Source: Diploschistes diacapsis (taxonomy: Eukaryota). From it: DNA of 62,509 nt. Within the stretch, counting starts at the first letter, position 1. Each line of letters begins with the position of its first letter. The stretch covers positions 1 through 62,509 of the forward strand of contig JALAIB010000003.1 of NCBI GenBank assembly GCA_023645945.1. The letters run 5' to 3'. This document shows positions 14,665-26,926 of this stretch, in pieces. Made by a program: the position numbers and the translations under genes. The notes beneath the pieces were generated by a model that was given only the letters and a program-made list of their open reading frames with translations, was not told the DNA's origin and made no database searches.

Positions 14665-15089
14665 TGCGGCAGAGACTATCCACAAGAGATGTGCGCTCGT
14701 TCAGTGCTCTTCGATTATCTCCGAGGAGGAGGGCCGTACGAATGATCAATGTAGAATACGCTCCGCATTAAAAAATTTAAATCCTATACACGTGAAATTG
14801 CTATACTTATGGCCGTGGACCCCTCGGAGCTTTTTCTGGACGGAAGCGCTAATTTTATTAAACACTCTCAAACATGTAATTTACCTCTATTTTCGCAGTT
14901 TATGCTTACTCGGCCTGTTACTCGGCCCGTGCTTTGAGCTACCATGTCGGTACTTACCATGTAGGTAAGTACGTAGTTCAGTAGCTTAAGGCATCAGGAG
15001 CTCGCGCGGCTTTGCGTTGCTGTTAGGTACAAAGATCCAGGACCCGACTTTTTGCAAGCTCCATATGCTTTTTGCCAATACCACGCACA

Positions 15090-15922
15090 ATGTGAGTATC
15101 TCTGCAGCCCTCGAGCTTTTCCATCAACTGAGCAACCATAGGGAAGTCTTACTCGGGATCACTGGCAAGGACTTCACCATTGTCGCAGCTTCCAAAGCTG
15201 CAATGAGGGGAGCTACTATTCTCAAGGCATCAGACGATAAGACAAGAGAGCTGAACGACCACACTTTGATGGCATTTTCGGGTGAAGCTGGTGATACGGG
15301 TATGTTAAGGCTTCATCTCCGTTTCCCCGTCGACTGCTCACAGAAGTAGTTCAATTTGCCGAGTTCATTCAAGCAAACATCAAACTATACTCAACGCGGA
15401 ACGATGCAGACCTTGCTCCCTCTGCTGTTGCGAGCTTCGTGAGGGGGGAATTGGCAAAAAGCCTGCGGTCGAAGAGCCCGTACAACGTCAACTTGCTTCT
15501 TGGGGGCGTCGACCCGATCACGCACCGACCACACTTGTACTGGTTGGACTACTTGGCTGCGCTCGCGCCCGTGCCTTACGCAGCCCACGGATATGCACAG
15601 TGAGTCTTTTCAGCAGTCGCCTTACCTCTGCACAAATTTGACTACTGATCATGTCCGAAAAAGATATTACTGCCTCTCGATTCTTGATAAACACCATCAC
15701 CCAGACATTAAGCTCGAGCAAGGAATGAAACTCTTACAGATGTGCTCGGATGAGTTGAAAAGGCGACTGCCCATCGATTTCAAAGGAGTAAGTTACGCAC
15801 ACTCATCCTTCTGCTCCAAGAACTAGGTTGACTGGGGACTGTAGCTCATCGTCAAGGTTGTTGACGAAAATGGCATCCGAGAAGTGGCAATAGACAACGA
15901 CAGATCCGTGAAAAGCGCTTGA
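15090..15922 (+). CDS. PRE1: 20S proteasome subunit beta 4 (beta type-2)
   Basis: MEVLLGITGKDF..FSGEAGDTVQFAEFIQAN..PYNVNLLLGG..AAHGYAQYYCLSILD..RLPIDFKG. Four introns, the first splitting the ATG (15092-15141); stop TGA at 15920-15922. Confidence 0.93.
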
Positions 15923-15999
15923 GTTGAGATTGACAATTTGTTTGTATACTAGTTACTGGTATGAACACAGTGCACAAAGCTACACACGATTGATTTAAC

Positions 16000-18200
16000 G
16001 CATGGAATAGAACGTATTAGAATGCGGAGATGATATCCAAAGTAGATAAAGGTGATATTATTTTGTTGAAGAAGAGTTGTTAGATATAAGACCTTTTGAT
16101 ATCAGCTTTAATATAATATCATGAAAGCATAGTTTATAATTCTTTGGCTCATTTGAACGTAAAATACAATGGGGTTGGTGTTCCATCAAAATTCTATACC
16201 CCTTGCGCGATTGTTATTCATTTGCTCATTACCGATGCTAGACTTACGTACATTATGCCTTTGAACTAGGTTCCCCCCTGATGTATTTGAGGATCCTCGA
16301 ATGCTTTTAGCTGCTGAGGCATTTGTTTTTCTACATAATCAACGTCATCAGCGGTTATCAGCGCCGGTCGGTTCCATAAAAGGGATTTAATACCTTCTTC
16401 ATAGTCCCTCCACATTGATCATCCTATTTTCGGCTTGCGTACGCCTCAACCTCACGCGTGACATTGCCAAAGAGTTCTAGCACCTTCTGATTTTGCTCCA
16501 ATAACGCATTCAGTTTCGTTTTTATAGTATTTAGGCTGGCGTCGCTAAGCTGATCGAGCTTCGCGTCCGAAGCAACTTTACTGGCATTCAGAATATATCA
16601 TGAAAGGTCTTTATAAAGGCGCGGAACCGGTGAGGGGTGTAACTGAAAATACGTTCAAGCGCAAATCTTCATGTCTGCGAAAGGCCGCGAGGCCAATCAA
16701 GTTTTAATATGATCATAATAGGTAACTCGGATAAATCATCACTTAATATTAAAAGGTTTTAAGACCTTTCACTCAGTAAATATGTTATTGGTAATATTAG
16801 AATTAGTTAAGTAACTCGATTGCTATGGAATTTAATCAGGATTAAGCAGGTATAGTGTAATGCTACGAAAATATTAAGAAGAATATATTTTATATTACGT
16901 AAGCGTATATATTCCACGCGTGAGAGCTTTGGCAAACAATGATACCTAACGACCCGGCGCCAATTAACGGACTTTTTATAATTTCAAATTAGGAAAAAAG
17001 ATTATTTCAAATAATAAATCGTTGTATTATAATTTAATTGGTTTTATTGCCTGTTTCGCTGGTTTCTAGCGTCTCGTGGCCTTCCGCCGAAATTATAAAG
17101 TGACCCTATACGTTTTTATCGTTTTCGAAACATTTCAATCTGTTTACTACTTCATACACTTCATTATTATTATATTATATGATCCTATTCATCATACGCC
17201 ACCTAGTCAGAGAATAAGAACCCTCCCCAGAACACCGTCGCTGCCTCCATTTTCGCCAATATCTTTGTTTAAACGGTTAAATAAAGCGCTGGAGCTCTCC
17301 CGAGATCAAGTATCGAGATAACAAAAAGCATGCGGAGGGCCCTCGACGCCCCAAGAAAAGCTTATAGGGCCTAAGTCAATATTAATTAAAGGATACATTG
17401 AGCAAATCATCGAGTGGATACAATTATTTCAAGGAGGAGGACTCCCTGGCGTCTTATTTCACGACATATGTCCTTTTGTTATGCTGGAGGGATCGTGGAG
17501 AGCGCTTTTAAAAAAGGTTCTAAAGAGCGTCTAAAAGCTATTATTCAATCAGCGAGGGATACTGTTAGGCCTAAACAACTTGAAGCACTCCTGAAACTAT
17601 GGCAGAATACTGCCAGGCAGTAATGCCAATGGTACACAAGATATAAGGTAGTGCTTCAGATCAATGAAAATATCCCGAAGCACTTCTTCTGCTTGTATGA
17701 TGTCGTACTAATCGGCACTAACTTTATTCTGGTAGGGACTTCGTAATAAGCTCGCCGGCCAGTCTACTAAAAACTTTTCGTGATGAAGTTGTTTGGGGAC
17801 TCTTTATAAAATTCATTTTAATAACAGCTTTTTTGTAATATTATGTTAATAGAAGATAAGTCCTGTTACGTTGTCTTATTATTAATTAAAAATGATAAGT
17901 TTGTTTTATTTCGATTTTGTATTAATTGTTTAAGCTCAGAAATCGGTCTTAATTAATTTGCGATTGTATAAACATGGCTCATAAGCAGAAACGATGAGTC
18001 CAATATGATAGCATTATTACACGTTTAATAGGGTCTATGAAGATCTTAGCATTTAACGTAGCTTGTTATTATTATTTACAAAATAGTGTCTATGTTGTAA
18101 TGAACCAATGATATTTATCCCAACCAGCCGTTAGCTCCATCGTTGACTTTGCCGTTACTTGTACGGTTGTGCATATTTACTTGAAGCTCCAAAAGATATT
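16000..18200. other. AT-rich, TpA-rich island with decayed coding-like relics (possible RIP-degraded repeat or pseudogenes)
   Basis: GC drops sharply between PRE1 and RPT4. Protein-like frames broken by TAG/TAA and frameshifts lie at about 16270-16600 (-) and 17180-17700 (+). Confidence 0.45.
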
Positions 18201-18457
18201 AATTCAACGGAAACCAAACTAATGCACTCCAGTCCCACGGCCTTCTATTACAACTCGACCCAAGGCAATACAAGCTTCTTTGACCTTATCTTGATTCTTG
18301 GCTCTCAGGCGTGAGACCTTACCTCGCCGGTACCAAGATCCGCAGAAAATCCAGTGCTTTAGCCACTGATTCCAAGACCCAGCTTCTTCGTGGATATTGA
18401 CTTTGTAACAGCAGGGAAGCCTACCACAACCGTACCGTTCTTGACGATCGAAAAGAT

Positions 18458-19799
18458 ATGGACGAGTCCGATCCTGAAAGAAAAGATGCTTTGGACCAAT
18501 ACACAAAAAAACTTCTTGAGTCCAGGGAGCAAGAAGCTAAGCTTAAAGCTCTGCGGCTAGACATCAAGGGCTTGCAAAATGACTTTGACACCACGGAAGA
18601 TAACATCAAGGCTTTGCAAAGTGTTGGTCAAATAATAGGCGAAGTTCTTAAGCAGCTTGACGAGGAGCGATGTAAGTTGACGTGGCACTTTGGTGGCGAC
18701 CTTCTAATGAAGGGAATCATGATGCTAACAGCACAAGTCATCGTAAAGGCTTCTTCAGGTCCGAGATATGTTGTGGGTTGCCGATCAAAAGTCGACAAGG
18801 CAAAATTGAAGCAAGGGACACGAGTTGCCCTGGACATGACAACTCTCACAATCATGCGAATGTTACCTAGGGAGGTCGACCCACTTGTTTACAATATGTC
18901 ACTCGAGGATCCAGGTCAAATTAGCTTTGCAGGAATCGGCGGGCTTAGTGATCAGATCAGAGAGCTCCGAGAAGTAATAGAACTACCCTTGAAGAATCCC
19001 GAACTATTCTTGCGTGTCGGCATCAAACCACCAAAAGGCGTTCTACTTTACGGACCTCCAGGCACAGGGAAAACACTCTTGGCTCGTGCTGTTGCGAGTA
19101 GTCTGGAGACAAATTTCTTGAAAGGTAATTTGATACCAATTTCTCTCGGGCTAGGCTGATTCATGGCCAAGTTGTATCTTCTGCTATAGTCGATAAGTAT
19201 ATTGGCGAATCTGCTCGGCTAATACGAGAAATGTTTGGTTATGCTAAGGAGCACGAGCCCTGCATCATCTTCATGGACGAGATAGACGCCATTGGTGGCC
19301 GGAGGTTCTCCGAGGGCACATCCGCTGATAGAGAAATACAAAGAACTCTGATGGAGCTGCTCAATCAACTAGACGGCTTCGATTACTTGGGGAAGACGAA
19401 GATTATCATGGCAACGAATCGGCCTGACACGCTTGATCCGGCCCTCCTACGCGCAGGCAGGCTTGATCGCAAGATCGAGATACCTCTTCCGAATGAGGTC
19501 GGTCGATTGGAAATTCTGAAGATTCATGCAAGTGGCGTTGCGCTAGACGGGGAAATTGATTTCGAGAGCATTGTGAAGATGAGCGATCAGCTCAATGGCG
19601 CGGATCTGCGGAATGTGGTCACTGAGGCGTTGGTGTCACTAACTATTCTGGTTTTTGGGAAGGCTAATGTTTGTGTAGAGGCTTGTCCGCAATCAAGGAC
19701 TACAGAGACGCCGTGAACCAAGACGACTTCAACAAAGCGGTTAGAAAGGTTGCAGAAACGAAGAAACTTGAGGGAAAGCTTGAATACCAGAAGCTGTAG
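18458..19799 (+). CDS. RPT4: 26S proteasome regulatory AAA-ATPase subunit 10B
   Basis: [16 protein letters not shown], Walker A GPPGTGKT, Walker [23 protein letters not shown]-terminus KLEYQKL; 3 introns. Confidence 0.96.
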
Positions 19800-20212: not shown

Positions 20213-22301
20213 ATGTCCTTTTCGCTTCCCAAAAACGTGCCACGCTTTGACGATGTACAGCGAAACTATGAGAATACTTACTGGGCACAGGCTCGCAATG
20301 CGAGCGGTGTCAGCAATGCGATTAGTGGCCTACTCGAGGGCAAAGAATTGCCAATGTACAAAGACAAGCCCTACAACTACCCGCGCTCGACGAGGCGGCC
20401 GCTTTGGCGACGAAAACGAAGTCTTGCTGGAGCTCTGCTTGTGTTTATAATTCTCTACTGGACCTACTTTGGCAATGGTGAGACGAAAACACGGGCAGCT
20501 TCCGACATCTGGAACCGTCTTAGGTGGCGACCATCCTCCCGATCAATCTGGGAAAGAAGAATGCAAGAGGTTCGAGTCGCTTATGAAGCTAGCTGGGACG
20601 GATATGAGCGTTACGCCTTAGGTTAGTTGAAGAGATCGAGCACCAAATACTTTCGACGGTCACTGGCGGCATTGTCTCGGTTACTGATTGCTCCAAGGGG
20701 AGGATGAGTTTCACCCCATAACCAGGACTGGCGGCAGGACTGCTCAAGGTGGTTTGGGAAATATTTGGGCAGATTCGCTAGATGGCTTGATGATCATGAA
20801 CTCGACCTCGAGGCTTTCAAGAGCAAGGCAATGGGCTGTCCAGTTCTTAAAGTTTTCGAAAAACCAAGAAGTTAGCACCTTCGATACATCATCACGTTTA
20901 CTTGGAGGATTGCTATCGGCTCATTTCCTATCAACCGAAGTACTGGAGTTGGAAAATGTCGACGGAAATGATGGTGAAGAGATCGATGAGGACATGTACA
21001 TCGAAAAAGCTACGGACCTGGTCGACCGGCTTTTTGGGGCCTTTGATTCGCCTAGCAATATACCTTATCCATTGATCCACCTCGAAACCCGAAAAGGGAC
21101 AACCTCAAAGGATAACGGTCACAGGACTACAACTGCACACGCTATTGGCATGCAGCTCGAATTTCGATACCTATCCAAACTCTTAGGCGAAAAGCTGTTT
21201 TGGGATGCTGCCGAGAAGACCTCCCAAACTCTTGATGCTGGAGCAGACTCTGACAATCTTATCCGTGGTCTGATAGTGCATAAAACTGGGGCTTTTGTAT
21301 CCTCGTCCGACCAACTGAGTAGCTTAACGGTCCCGTATTTCGGTCAGTGCAGATTTACTGTTCTTCATTGTCACTAATTTCCTATTTTAGAGTATTTGGT
21401 AAAAGAGTACCTCCAAACATCTCAGCAGGAGCCTATCTATCATGAGATCTGGACAGAGGCACTCGCTAGTATCAGAAAGAAATTCACCGCTTATTCCGAG
21501 ATCTCGCACTTTACGGTGCTTGGAGAAGCTAAGCCAGGCACCAACATTCTAGCTATGGAAGAGACGGCGTGTAAACTTCCAGGGTTGATTGTTTTAGCAG
21601 CAACTGGAGGCCGGTCTTTGACACAGGCGAGGAAAAATAAATCCTGGAATCGCGAAAGAGAGAACGAGGTTGCGTTCTCCAAGGAACTGATGAATTCATG
21701 CTGGGCCTTGTATAAGGCATCACCTTCCGGCCTCGCCGCAGCTAAATCATTCTTCAAGATTACTTTAGATGCCGCACCGGAAGCTCCTGGGGTGTATCCA
21801 TCGGCTAAGATTGACTGGGGGGCAAATAGAGGTTCAAGTGCGAAGTGGAAAGATGACATTTCTCTTGACCCTGACTGGGCCCAGAACAACCAAGATGCTT
21901 CTTTTGTCGAAAGCTTGCTCTACCTCTACCGGGTTACAGAAGAGGAGACATATCGACAATGGGGATGGGAATTGTTTACTTCGTATATCAACTACACGTC
22001 TACGCCTGCCGGTGATGGCTTTGTAGCCCTTTCAAGCGTGCTGGAGCCTCCCCAGCAGGTGGATGTCATGAACGGGCTCTGGCTGTCGCGAACGCTAAAG
22101 TTCTTCTACCTCCTTTTTGCACCGCTGGACCTCCTACCGTTGGACAAAGTTATTTTCACAACGTCTGGTCATGTTCTTCCTAGATTCAAGCTGAATAGGG
22201 GTCTGAACACTGGCTGGAAGAGGAAAGCCAGGAGTGGGAAGAGTAAGGTTACAGGCGCGTCACAGCAAGGCGAGGAGACTACCGGTTCGCGACCTGACTA
22301 G
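20213..22301 (+). CDS. GH47 ER alpha-1,2-mannosidase (Mns1-like) homolog with degenerate active site
   Basis: Type II TM anchor, SWDGYERYALGEDEFHPI, RLLGGLLSA, QLEFRYLS, YRQWGW, TLKFFYLLF. Introns at about 20622-20697 and 21343-21390. Many catalytic residues are altered (see findings). Confidence 0.85.
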
Positions 22302-22593: not shown

Positions 22594-24276
22594 TTATGTT
22601 ACTCGGGCTCTTGGCTGCTTGCGTTTTTCTAGTACCAACAGGTATGACTCTCCTGTAAAGAGCGTCTCTGCTGGGACCTTCTCGACAAACAAATCTTGAA
22701 TCTCGAGCCATTCATCGCGCGCCCGATCGTGCAGTTGCGTTTTCCAGACTTTCTTCTCTGCCTCGCCCTCAACGCTGTCGTCCCTTATCCTGATTGCCTC
22801 GTGCGTGACGTTGGCGACCAGATCGTAAAGGATAGTCTCCCCTGGAGGATGTATGGAAGGGTTTGGTTCAACATAAGGAGCCATGTCGAGGGAATGGCTG
22901 TTGAATATGACGATGGTCGGATTTCGCTCCGAAACAAACTTATTCTTGGAAAAGCGCTTGATATGGAGAAGGAGATAAGGAGGAAGCGGGTGGAGCAGGC
23001 GATAGCGCTTTCGTGCACTTTGGTGTTCAGCGGTCCGAATTCCATCATATTTGGATAGTATGGAATTTAGCGGTACCTGCGGAATGGCGTTCTTATCTAA
23101 TTCATCCTGGAAGAGAGGTGCAGGAGGAAGATCCAGGGTGAGCATTAGGAAGTGGTTCTTCTCTGTTAGGACCTCGCCAGCCTCTTCGAATCTTAGACGG
23201 TCATTGGCGTCTGCCTTTGCTGTAATCTTTTGACTCTCGATCTTGAGCTGTCCTTGAAACACTTTCTGGATGATGCTGGTTCCTGGCTTCGACTTACTGC
23301 CACCAAGCGCGAGATGAAGATTGTTCAGAAACCAGCTAAGGAATTCTACAGGATCCGACTGGTGCAAAAGATCGAAGCGCTTCTGCGACTGCCTTGAGAC
23401 CTGCTGCAACAACTCATGCGGCGAGACATGAGACTTGAATGCTCTCGTATTCCAGATTTTGCGTACCAATACCGAGAAGCGCTGTATCAGCTCCGGTTTG
23501 GTGGCGAAATCTTCGAGCATGAAATAGTTTCGAATTGGCGGAACATGCGCAAGAGCCTGAATAACGACGTTGAAATAATCGTTCGCCTTGATGTTGTTCA
23601 TTCCTACGAATCCTGGATGGTATCTCTTTCCACCGATGTCAAAGGAGCTGTTTGGCTCCTTGTCTAGCCGCAAGACCTGCTCTTTTGGTAGCCGTGGATC
23701 AACCACAAACTTGATGTCGTCCAGGCTCTTGCTTGTGACCTCATAACCTTCTGGAAGAACATAGACCCTTTTCGTTTCCATATTGACGAAGACATGGTGG
23801 TCTACCTCAAGGGCATGGAAGTAGGCGTGAGACTTAGTACCTCGGCCTTGAAAGTATTTGCCGCATACCAAGCACGCGTAGACATTAATGTTCGAGAGCG
23901 AAATGGAGCAAAGTTTCTCGAAGTCAAAGTCGAGAACGGAACGATCGATGGTGTCCAGGTACAGATCGCCGAAGCCATCAGCTGGCACCTGCTGTCGTTC
24001 TGGAGCTGCAAACGTCGGCTGATCTCCATCTGAATCTTCGTCTTCCAAAAGCGAATCCTCCAAGTTGCAAAAAGCCGACACTCCTATAGGTTGGGGACTC
24101 CGTCCAGAGATCTTAGCTCCATCACTATTCCCCAAAGCTTGTGCTTCGGGTGAGGAACCTGTGCCGTTGGATCGACTGGTACCCTCAAACCGTGGACTAA
24201 GACGTACCTTCTTCTGCGACGGGGAATTTCGGTATGTGACGTCTTCAAGAAGGTCTTCAGCGGGTCTTTTTGTCAT
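22594..24276 (-). CDS. SAD1: U4/U6.U5 tri-snRNP-associated protein Sad1/USP39
   Basis: YLDTIDRSVLDFDFEKLCS, zf-UBP (NVYACLVCGKYFQGRG), GFVGMNNIKANDY (Asp in place of the catalytic Cys, as known for this family), ERNPTIV. Confidence 0.93.
   Translation of the reverse strand: MTKRPAEDLLEDVTYRNSPSQKKVRLSPRFEGTSRSNGTGSSPEAQALGNSDGAKISGRSPQPIGVSAFCNLEDSLLEDEDSDGDQPTFAAPERQQVPADGFGDLYLDTIDRSVLDFDFEKLCSISLSNINVYACLVCGKYFQGRGTKSHAYFHALEVDHHVFVNMETKRVYVLPEGYEVTSKSLDDIKFVVDPRLPKEQVLRLDKEPNSSFDIGGKRYHPGFVGMNNIKANDYFNVVIQALAHVPPIRNYFMLEDFATKPELIQRFSVLVRKIWNTRAFKSHVSPHELLQQVSRQSQKRFDLLHQSDPVEFLSWFLNNLHLALGGSKSKPGTSIIQKVFQGQLKIESQKITAKADANDRLRFEEAGEVLTEKNHFLMLTLDLPPAPLFQDELDKNAIPQVPLNSILSKYDGIRTAEHQSARKRYRLLHPLPPYLLLHIKRFSKNKFVSERNPTIVIFNSHSLDMAPYVEPNPSIHPPGETILYDLVANVTHEAIRIRDDSVEGEAEKKVWKTQLHDRARDEWLEIQDLFVEKVPAETLFTGESYLLVLEKRKQPRARVT

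Positions 24277-25299: not shown

Positions 25300-26926
<1,627 letters not shown>

Follow-up and report, generated by a model that had tools for sequence, protein, structure and literature searches.

In the fungus Diploschistes diacapsis, a gene of the MNS1 type has kept an open reading frame and a predicted membrane anchor while most of the residues with which endoplasmic reticulum (ER) mannosidase I holds and cuts its substrate have been replaced. The gene lies at 20213 to 22301 in the stretch analyzed here, 62,509 nucleotides of contig JALAIB010000003.1 (assembly GCA_023645945.1, positions 1 to 62,509 of the forward strand), which we call the window. ER mannosidase I, a member of glycoside hydrolase family 47 (GH47), makes the first mannose cut and so times glycoprotein degradation; pseudoenzymes are common. 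Judged from its sequence, the product of this gene (the query) is almost certainly a dead enzyme. With rather less assurance, we favor the view that the gene is the MNS1 orthologue of this species, that catalysis was lost in an ancestor, and that the protein has been kept as a type II membrane pseudoenzyme that may serve as a scaffold or adaptor.

Results

The gene has three exons, with an ATG at 20213, a TAG at 22299-22301, 1965 nucleotides of coding sequence, 654 amino acids and no internal stop. Both introns are GT-AG, carry branch-site-like CTGAT or CTAAT sequences, and were placed from splice signals and homology. A first-pass annotation, made by a model from the letters of the window, had described a full-length spliced open reading frame with an intact transmembrane anchor and a conserved N-terminus, and all three are there: the N-terminus aligns to Mns1 homologs and contains LPMYKDKP, and a single hydrophobic segment (residues 70-86, mean hydropathy 1.9), preceded by a basic patch, predicts a type II topology with a cytosolic N-terminal tail. 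We rejected the idea that mis-splicing conceals the D463 motif (human numbering), since of the GT-AG pairs that preserve the frame only the chosen one brings back the YFEYL helix, and relatives are also hydrophobic at that site.

Membership in GH47 is plain, the two halves of the gene matching PF01532 at 148 and 164 bits against a curated cut-off of 22.9. The alignments that the annotation had proposed as a check, to Pfam and to yeast Mns1 and human MAN1B1, again place both halves in PF01532 (E 4e-43 and 9e-48) and show the acids to be absent. Among solved structures, yeast Mns1 and human ER mannosidase I come closest in sequence, and a search with exon 3 returned 44 long homologues that are Pezizomycotina Mns1-type proteins of 35-45% identity; the nearest subfamily is Mns1/MAN1B1, not the Golgi, secreted or EDEM branches of GH47. 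The protein ends about 40 residues past the barrel, without the long C-terminal extension of EDEM-type proteins, and with the genome's own Mnl1-like gene matching it at only E 3e-11 it falls outside the EDEM/Htm1/Mnl1 group.

Eighteen active-site positions were scored in the query and 159 other proteins, only the positions covered by each row being counted; the choice of positions is in part our own. Yeast numbering follows chain 1dl2 (offset 33) and human numbering chain 1fo2 (offset 239), both from Protein Data Bank (PDB) alignments. In the query 12 of the 18 positions are changed (E330D, E397H, R461L, D463V, H524E, E570A, R597D, E599S, E657N, F659L, E663R and E689S, human numbering), which requires at least 23 base substitutions, and R334, E404, E467, C527, E602 and T688 are retained. 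The five residues to which the annotation had drawn attention, checked on the PDB alignments, are indeed all replaced (yeast E132 by D199, D275 by V348, E435 by S522, E503 by R585, E526 by S610), the first of them conservatively, and the glutamate of the TAE motif (yeast E207, human E397) is H284. All seven of the motif changes it listed (e.g., FETTIR to FDTSSR, TAE to TAH, NTEAH to TTSGH) occur in the spliced protein and align to the canonical motifs. Retained in yeast terms are E214, E279, E438, R136 and T525, and the disulfide pair of the C340-C385 type is C412 and C455.

This degree of change is rare. Among the 160 aligned rows, 143 show no change, five show one, and 12, the query included, show six or more; changes confined to fragment ends (P0170, P0176 and similar) were not scored as degenerate, and P0046, one of the 12, was removed from the tally as a misaligned unrelated piece (20% identity, no true GH47 alignment).

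Passages in PMC5035969 propose E330, D463 and E599 as catalytic and name R334C and E397K as disease alleles, and excerpts from a preprint (bioRxiv 10.1101/2025.01.29.635535) describe a terminal mannose stabilized by R597, E599, E663, T688 and E689, with T688 binding the ion. An active class I mannosidase would carry the trio E330, D463 and E599; the query has D199, V348 and S522 instead. At the Ca2+ and terminal-mannose site D520, S522, R585 and S610 are changed and T609, E352 and E525 retained. The C527-C556 disulfide is preserved, C412 and C455 being invariant across the clade described below. No conserved acid at a shifted position replaces D463 or E599 anywhere in the whole clade alignment, and selection on the gene persists; the candidate pseudoenzyme of the first-pass annotation therefore stands as far as sequence allows. 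The replacements at D463, E599, E330, E663, E689, R461 and R597 together make hydrolysis very unlikely.

The remodeled pocket is not peculiar to the query. Two of the 44 first matches are likewise degenerate, and P0034 clusters with CAF9916538.1 of Gomphillus americanus (Ostropomycetidae). Profile searches added P0049, P0074/P0308, P0086 and P0159, as well as the fragments P0194 (57%) and P0214 (60%), which are nearer the query. A tree of 42 rows, made by quick search without bootstrap after 112 motif columns had been dropped, unites the query with P0194, P0214, P0159, P0049, P0308, P0086, P0034 and P0047 in a nine-row clade (Shimodaira-Hasegawa-like approximate likelihood ratio test, SH-aLRT, 100); P0045, P0048 and P0074, near-copies of P0047 and P0308, were omitted from the trees. 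Placed alone, the clade is sister to a canonical protein from JGI (95), among Lecanoromycete and Eurotiomycete sequences.

Within the clade, new residues have become fixed: H524E in 8/8 of the rows that cover the site, E657N, F659L in 7/7, E663R/K in 7/7, and a hydrophobic residue (V/I/M) at D463 in 8/8. E404, E467, C527 and E602 are invariant old residues, the R334 site is R or K, and other sites vary, with D, H, A or E at E330, T, S, A or P at T688, and S, G or A at E689. Because the same remodeled pocket is found in relatives that are only 40-60% identical, Gomphillus americanus among them, the annotation's alternative of a recently relaxed gene finds no support. We suggest that catalysis was lost in an ancestor common to the query and Gomphillus, lichens of the Ostropomycetidae. 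A metagenome scan for DNA of the relatives gave, among the matches listed (of at least 595 pattern matches), two unrelated loci at 26% identity. The Gomphillus model itself (CAF9916538.1, P0045), at 1060 residues, apparently fuses a 615-residue Mns1-like gene to the gene downstream; its ENA cluster members end at residue 615.

In the probable source run, which is a lichen metagenome, a single contig spans the whole gene at depth 96 and with no differences, which excludes an assembly error or frameshift artifact. In a second run (X2), where one contig of depth 92 is 98.6% identical, there are 30 coding differences, 20 synonymous and 10 non-synonymous; the ratio of non-synonymous to synonymous differences per site (pN/pS) is 0.16-0.23 across four transition/transversion settings, and the binomial p never exceeds 6e-5. 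One of the non-synonymous changes introduces a premature stop and shortens the protein by three residues. Neither this run nor a third (X3) contains a coding indel, and neither restores any catalytic residue. Purifying selection acts on the reading frame, with significance in one of the two comparisons; the X2 ratio of about 0.2 argues against fresh decay, and we consider it very likely that the gene is maintained by selection. Codon 652 (22290-22291) is a stop in X2 and Gln in X3, so that the last residues of the C-terminal tail appear to be unconstrained.

What has been conserved lies largely away from the pocket. We call a position near-invariant when 90% or more of a set of 30 canonical proteins agree on it; of these positions the query keeps 34/72 in the pocket motifs, 116/180 elsewhere in the barrel and all 21/21 in the N-terminal tail, LPMYKDKP and C-terminal end motifs (Fisher p 0.016 and 0.0003). 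Among the proteins examined, 120/131 full-length canonical and 11/12 degenerate ones have the LPxYKDKP motif; LPxY resembles a ligand of WW domains (Rsp5). The predicted fold of the relative P0159 is a full GH47 barrel, of the (alpha/alpha)7 type, with a predicted local distance difference test score (pLDDT) of 90.6 and a predicted template modeling score (pTM) of 0.92, and its best match is yeast Mns1 (1g6i, template modeling score 0.81); this is the fold of the relative and not of the window's own protein. A fold of P0034 built from 14 sequences was poor (pLDDT 53.9) and went unused.

The genome holds eight GH47 genes, the query included. The seven further loci, which the annotation had suggested counting, each keep all five motifs, and this excludes genome-wide decay of the family. 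A search of the genome with canonical Mns1 gave the query as the only close match (45%, E 1e-138), the next being 34% identical (E 1e-51). Paralogues L001-L004 have an N-terminal hydrophobic anchor; L005 and L006 we read as the secreted type and L007 as Mnl1/EDEM-like. L003, of about 1000 residues, combines intact motifs with an extended stem rich in Ser/Thr and two large barrel insertions.

We take AN5748 to be the Mns1 orthologue of Aspergillus nidulans. The query gene is 3 kb from enolase; in A. nidulans, as listed in excerpts from two papers, enolase is AN5746 (PMC5863803) and an alpha-1,2-mannosidase is AN5748 (PMC12198042), two locus numbers away. A passage of PMC4086290 names AO090003000057 as the MNS1 homologue of A. 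oryzae. As the only Mns1-type gene found, in a neighborhood that by locus numbers resembles that of A. nidulans, the query gene is likely to be the orthologue and not a spare copy.

Thirteen of 14 genes of the ER pathway were found: ALG9, ALG12, GPI10, SMP3, ALG6, ALG8 and ALG10, together with UGGT, calnexin, Yos9, glucosidase II beta, Mnl1 and the query gene. The best named matches of Alg9 are Pleopsidium, Lambiella, Xylographa and Agyrium (60-63%), as fits a Lecanoromycete. ALG3 gave no candidates by the PF05208 profile and no matches by two ALG3 motifs in the whole genome, in searches without a positive control. In A. nidulans, PKC1 is, we believe, two locus numbers from ALG3; here PKC1 stands alone on a contig of 5056 bases, and an assembly gap is thus the simpler cause of the missing gene. 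The absence is probably such a gap and possibly a real loss. ALG3 counts were also sought for Gomphillus and Trypetheliales, and there was no GT58 or GH47 entry in eight supplement files of PMC9098629 or two of PMC7082219.

Other Mns1 proteins have eroded pockets with different substitutions: those of Trypethelium eluteriae (P0123) and Bogoriella megaspora (P0162), an ENA group (P0044, P0161, P0169) and Tortispora caseinolytica (P0195). All have open frames, with 7-13 of the 18 sites changed, and those ascomycete rows that cover it retain LPxYKDKP; unlike the query clade, these proteins keep H524. When placed alone, the Trypetheliales pair and the ENA group each lie within Dothideomycetes (99); in a combined tree all three groups, the query clade included, join (83). 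A FastTree run on all columns grouped the degenerate proteins outside canonical Pezizomycotina, which we took as long-branch attraction and set aside. Separate losses of Mns1 catalysis, drawn together by long-branch attraction, are probably the explanation; alternatively, there may be one old degenerate paralogue. In the ENA group (P0044, P0161, P0169/P0309) D463 is retained and E599 is K, and the Tortispora protein (ODV92703.1, P0195) has 13/18 positions changed. Among more distant GH47 proteins, the P0302 cluster (Logan) has 11/18 and P0209 (JGI) 7/18 sites changed; P0185, P0208, P0209, P0302 and P0305 are eroded or fragmentary and have no place in the tree.

Discussion

Catalytic residues lost, a frame intact and purifying selection acting on it are the marks of a pseudoenzyme, and the query appears to bear all three; by descent it is a GH47 protein of the Mns1 subfamily, and not one to be filed as an active class I mannosidase. 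With yeast Mns1, human MAN1B1 and the Aspergillus ManE type (GH47, PF01532) it shares the predicted type II layout, probably the barrel, the disulfide pair and the best sequence matches (and, through its relative P0159, the best fold match); with Pezizomycotina Mns1 proteins it has 42-45% identity, and with Aspergillus apparently a neighborhood that includes enolase. It differs from the active Mns1 types in that its three catalytic acids are changed (one conservatively), most ion and mannose contacts are lost, and new pocket residues are fixed.

We speculate that the arginine or lysine at E663 pairs with the retained E467 and E602 and with the new glutamate at H524, replacing Ca2+ by an internal salt bridge, and that the hydrophobic residue at D463 repacks the pocket floor, the metal site thus being plugged from inside. 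The outer surface and the cytosolic LPxYKDKP tail could then act as a scaffold, or as a retention or retrieval adaptor, in glycoprotein quality control in the ER and cis-Golgi; that the job retained is that of a quality-control adaptor seems to us about an even chance. The Man9-to-Man8B step would be skipped, or else fall to Mnl1/EDEM or to one of the four GH47 paralogues that carry a membrane anchor. Work by Akao in 2012 on an A. oryzae manE disruptant, to go by its title, reportedly found it to be without Man9-to-Man8B activity, so the paralogues would have given no cover there. In yeast without Mns1, according to excerpts from PMC2615083, Htm1 trimming is almost abolished; with that dependence, and with Mnl1 and Yos9 kept here, a substitute enzyme, a Man9-accepting Mnl1 or another precursor would be needed. 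N-glycan trimming in this fungus would then be altered, as the annotation had anticipated.

A catalysis-independent function of human MAN1B1 was reportedly described by Iannotti in 2014 and Sun in 2020. According to passages in two reviews (PMC7835635, PMC5035969), MAN1B1 acts in quality control without its enzymatic activity, by means of its stem and cytoplasmic tail, and this offers a model for a dead protein. MAN1B1, however, is active, whereas the query's catalysis appears to have been removed by evolution, and the likeness proposed is one of function. Htm1/Mnl1/EDEM are also GH47 proteins, once taken for inactive ER-associated degradation (ERAD) lectins according to excerpts from PMC7835635, but they keep the catalytic acids, are active and have a C-terminal extension, whereas the query is Mns1-like and lacks the extension, and an intact Mnl1 (L007) is separate. 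The Mns1 of Schizosaccharomyces pombe is said (Movsichoff, 2005) to be nearly inactive yet needed for ERAD; it was reportedly not described as lacking catalytic acids. Our literature search, which had most subscription papers outside its coverage, found no description of a catalytically dead Mns1 orthologue; parts of PMC5225481 and of bioRxiv 10.64898/2026.07.28.741190 mention GH47, and those parts hold no dead Mns1 orthologue.

Several observations weigh against our reading. Three acids (D199, E409 and D520) are still near the pocket. In X3, present as fragments at depth 2-4, nine synonymous and 12 non-synonymous differences give a pN/pS of 0.43-0.60 that is not significant (p 0.05-0.17), and all these ratios come from the gene alone, without a neighboring-gene control. 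Active enzymes conserve the tail motif just as well, and its sole use may be to sort the protein itself; the non-pocket barrel has drifted too (43% to Lambiella Mns1 versus 62-78% among active orthologues), which points to a relaxed overall constraint. The predicted fold is that of P0159, from an alignment of mostly active enzymes, so that the model leans toward the active form. The placement of the clade is unstable, moving inside Dothideomycetes beside other degenerate groups when all are combined (83). The assembly is in 4361 contigs, and with the conserved ALG3 not found a second, active MNS1 could be missed. Lastly, Htm1/EDEM was once wrongly called inactive, though its acids are retained (passages in PMC7835635).

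Some of these points bear on other explanations. An unlikely one is that the dead enzyme is now a lectin or ligand sensor, its pocket binding a glycan or hydrophobic ligand and sorting clients without cutting them. The residues newly fixed in the clade (H524E, E657N, F659L, E663R/K, a hydrophobic D463, and R or K at R334) show selection on the pocket's new state, but the holders of mannose and ion (R597, E599, E663, T688 and E689), with R461, are lost or freely varying, and the pocket motifs are the least conserved part of the protein. Less probable again is a duplicate with a non-catalytic job, the active MNS1 lying elsewhere and absent from the fragmented assembly. The number of contigs and the missing ALG3 would allow this, and the combined tree that unites all degenerate proteins (83) is compatible with an old duplication; yet two genome searches gave no second Mns1-type match while 13 of 14 ER pathway genes were found, the gene is near enolase as in Aspergillus, and the degenerate groups bear different substitutions, long branches being prone to attract. 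Decay, in the form of a functionless gene that is degenerating or recently relaxed, is highly improbable and largely refuted. Fast evolution, the X3 ratio not significantly below 1 and the X2 stop three codons before the end are what it can draw on, set against an open frame across a clade of 40-60% identity, common new residues, a pN/pS of about 0.2 in X2 and tail motifs kept at 21/21 positions. We give an equally slim chance to residual or altered catalysis by way of D199, E409, D520, E352 and E525: E330 is D in the query and E in five rows on the Gomphillus side, and the query keeps T688, E467 and E602, but D463 and E599 are non-acidic in all covering clade rows, P0214 and P0159 have H or A at E330, and D at R597 occurs only in the query.

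It is also improbable, though compatible with an adaptor role, that the substrate was lost first, so that with ALG3 gone the precursor would lack the B arm and Mns1 catalysis would be useless. ALG3 was found neither by PF05208 nor by the two motifs where twelve other glycan and quality-control genes were found. However, the PF05208 search had no positive control, ALG9 is well conserved (63% to Lambiella), ALG12 looks intact, and PKC1, which lies near ALG3 in Aspergillus, is alone on its 5056-base contig, so that the region is broken in the assembly. In yeast alg3 mutants, degradation of CPY* is independent of glycan trimming (PMC2615083). In A. nidulans lacking ALG3, Alg9 and Alg12 contribute little (PMC12198042). 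A rewired pathway, to which we assign the same low probability, would have ALG3 lost, Alg12 and Alg9 building the C arm on a precursor without the B arm, Mnl1 and Yos9 still making and reading the degradation signal, and a substrate-less Mns1 acting as a pure membrane adaptor; if true, it would account for Mns1 having eroded repeatedly, in Trypetheliales, the ENA group and Tortispora.

In the case of human MAN1B1, the argument over a non-catalytic job has drawn on mutants in cell lines. If the ancestral loss and retention that we favor are correct, a natural lineage without the active site but with the protein, apparently arisen more than once in fungi, separates the catalytic from the non-catalytic job and marks the surfaces that matter, namely the tail motif and the barrel exterior. 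That the single ER mannosidase I lost catalysis throughout a lineage, and probably did so repeatedly, would open the debated non-catalytic role to direct testing; one would also expect these lichens to have different N-glycans or another enzyme that takes over the step. The database label alpha-1,2-mannosidase on the Gomphillus, Bogoriella and JGI proteins is probably wrong.

Features of the Window

Table 1. Coordinates of the MNS1-type gene, its altered sites and its neighbors (residues in parentheses in human numbering unless marked)
Feature	Position	Strand	Evidence
Proteasomal AAA ATPase, upstream neighbor	18401..19799 (ends approximate)	+	PF16450, PF00004
Exon 1: cytosolic tail, transmembrane anchor, stem, first GH47 barrel helix	20213..20621	+	N-terminus aligns to Mns1 homologs
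LPMYKDKP cytosolic motif, residues 46-53	20348..20371	+	Present in active and dead Mns1 proteins
Predicted type II transmembrane anchor, residues 70-86	20420..20470	+	Strongest hydropathy segment (1.9)
Intron 1, 76 nt, GT-AG	20622..20697	+	Splice signals and homology
Exon 2: N-terminal half of GH47 barrel	20698..21342	+	PF01532, E 4.4e-43
D199 (catalytic E330; yeast E132)	20883..20885	+	Alignment
L346 (R461) and V348 (catalytic D463; yeast R273, D275)	21324..21332	+	Alignment
Intron 2, 48 nt, GT-AG, in frame, contains TAA	21343..21390	+	Splice signals and homology
Exon 3: C-terminal barrel half and conserved PRFKL..TGWKRK end	21391..22301	+	PF01532, E 8.9e-48
E409 (H524), new residue in 8/8 clade rows covering the site	21561..21563	+	Alignment
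D520 (R597) and S522 (catalytic E599; yeast E435)	21894..21902	+	Alignment
N579 (E657), L581 (F659), R585 (E663; yeast E503), common new pocket residues	22071..22091	+	Alignment
T609 (Ca-binding T688; retained here, lost in relatives) and S610 (E689; yeast E526)	22161..22166	+	Alignment
zf-UBP and UCH protein, downstream neighbor	22594..24276	-	Pfam match
Enolase exons, synteny marker	25558..26926	+	PF03952, PF00113

The upstream ATPase is presumably Rpt4-like. The downstream neighbor we take to be Sad1-like (Sad1/USP39); Sad1/USP39 is a known inactive deubiquitinase. Upstream of the ATPase gene, the stretch at about 14700-18400 is A+T-rich (G+C fraction 0.37 at 16001-18000) and has no open reading frame of 130 or more residues.

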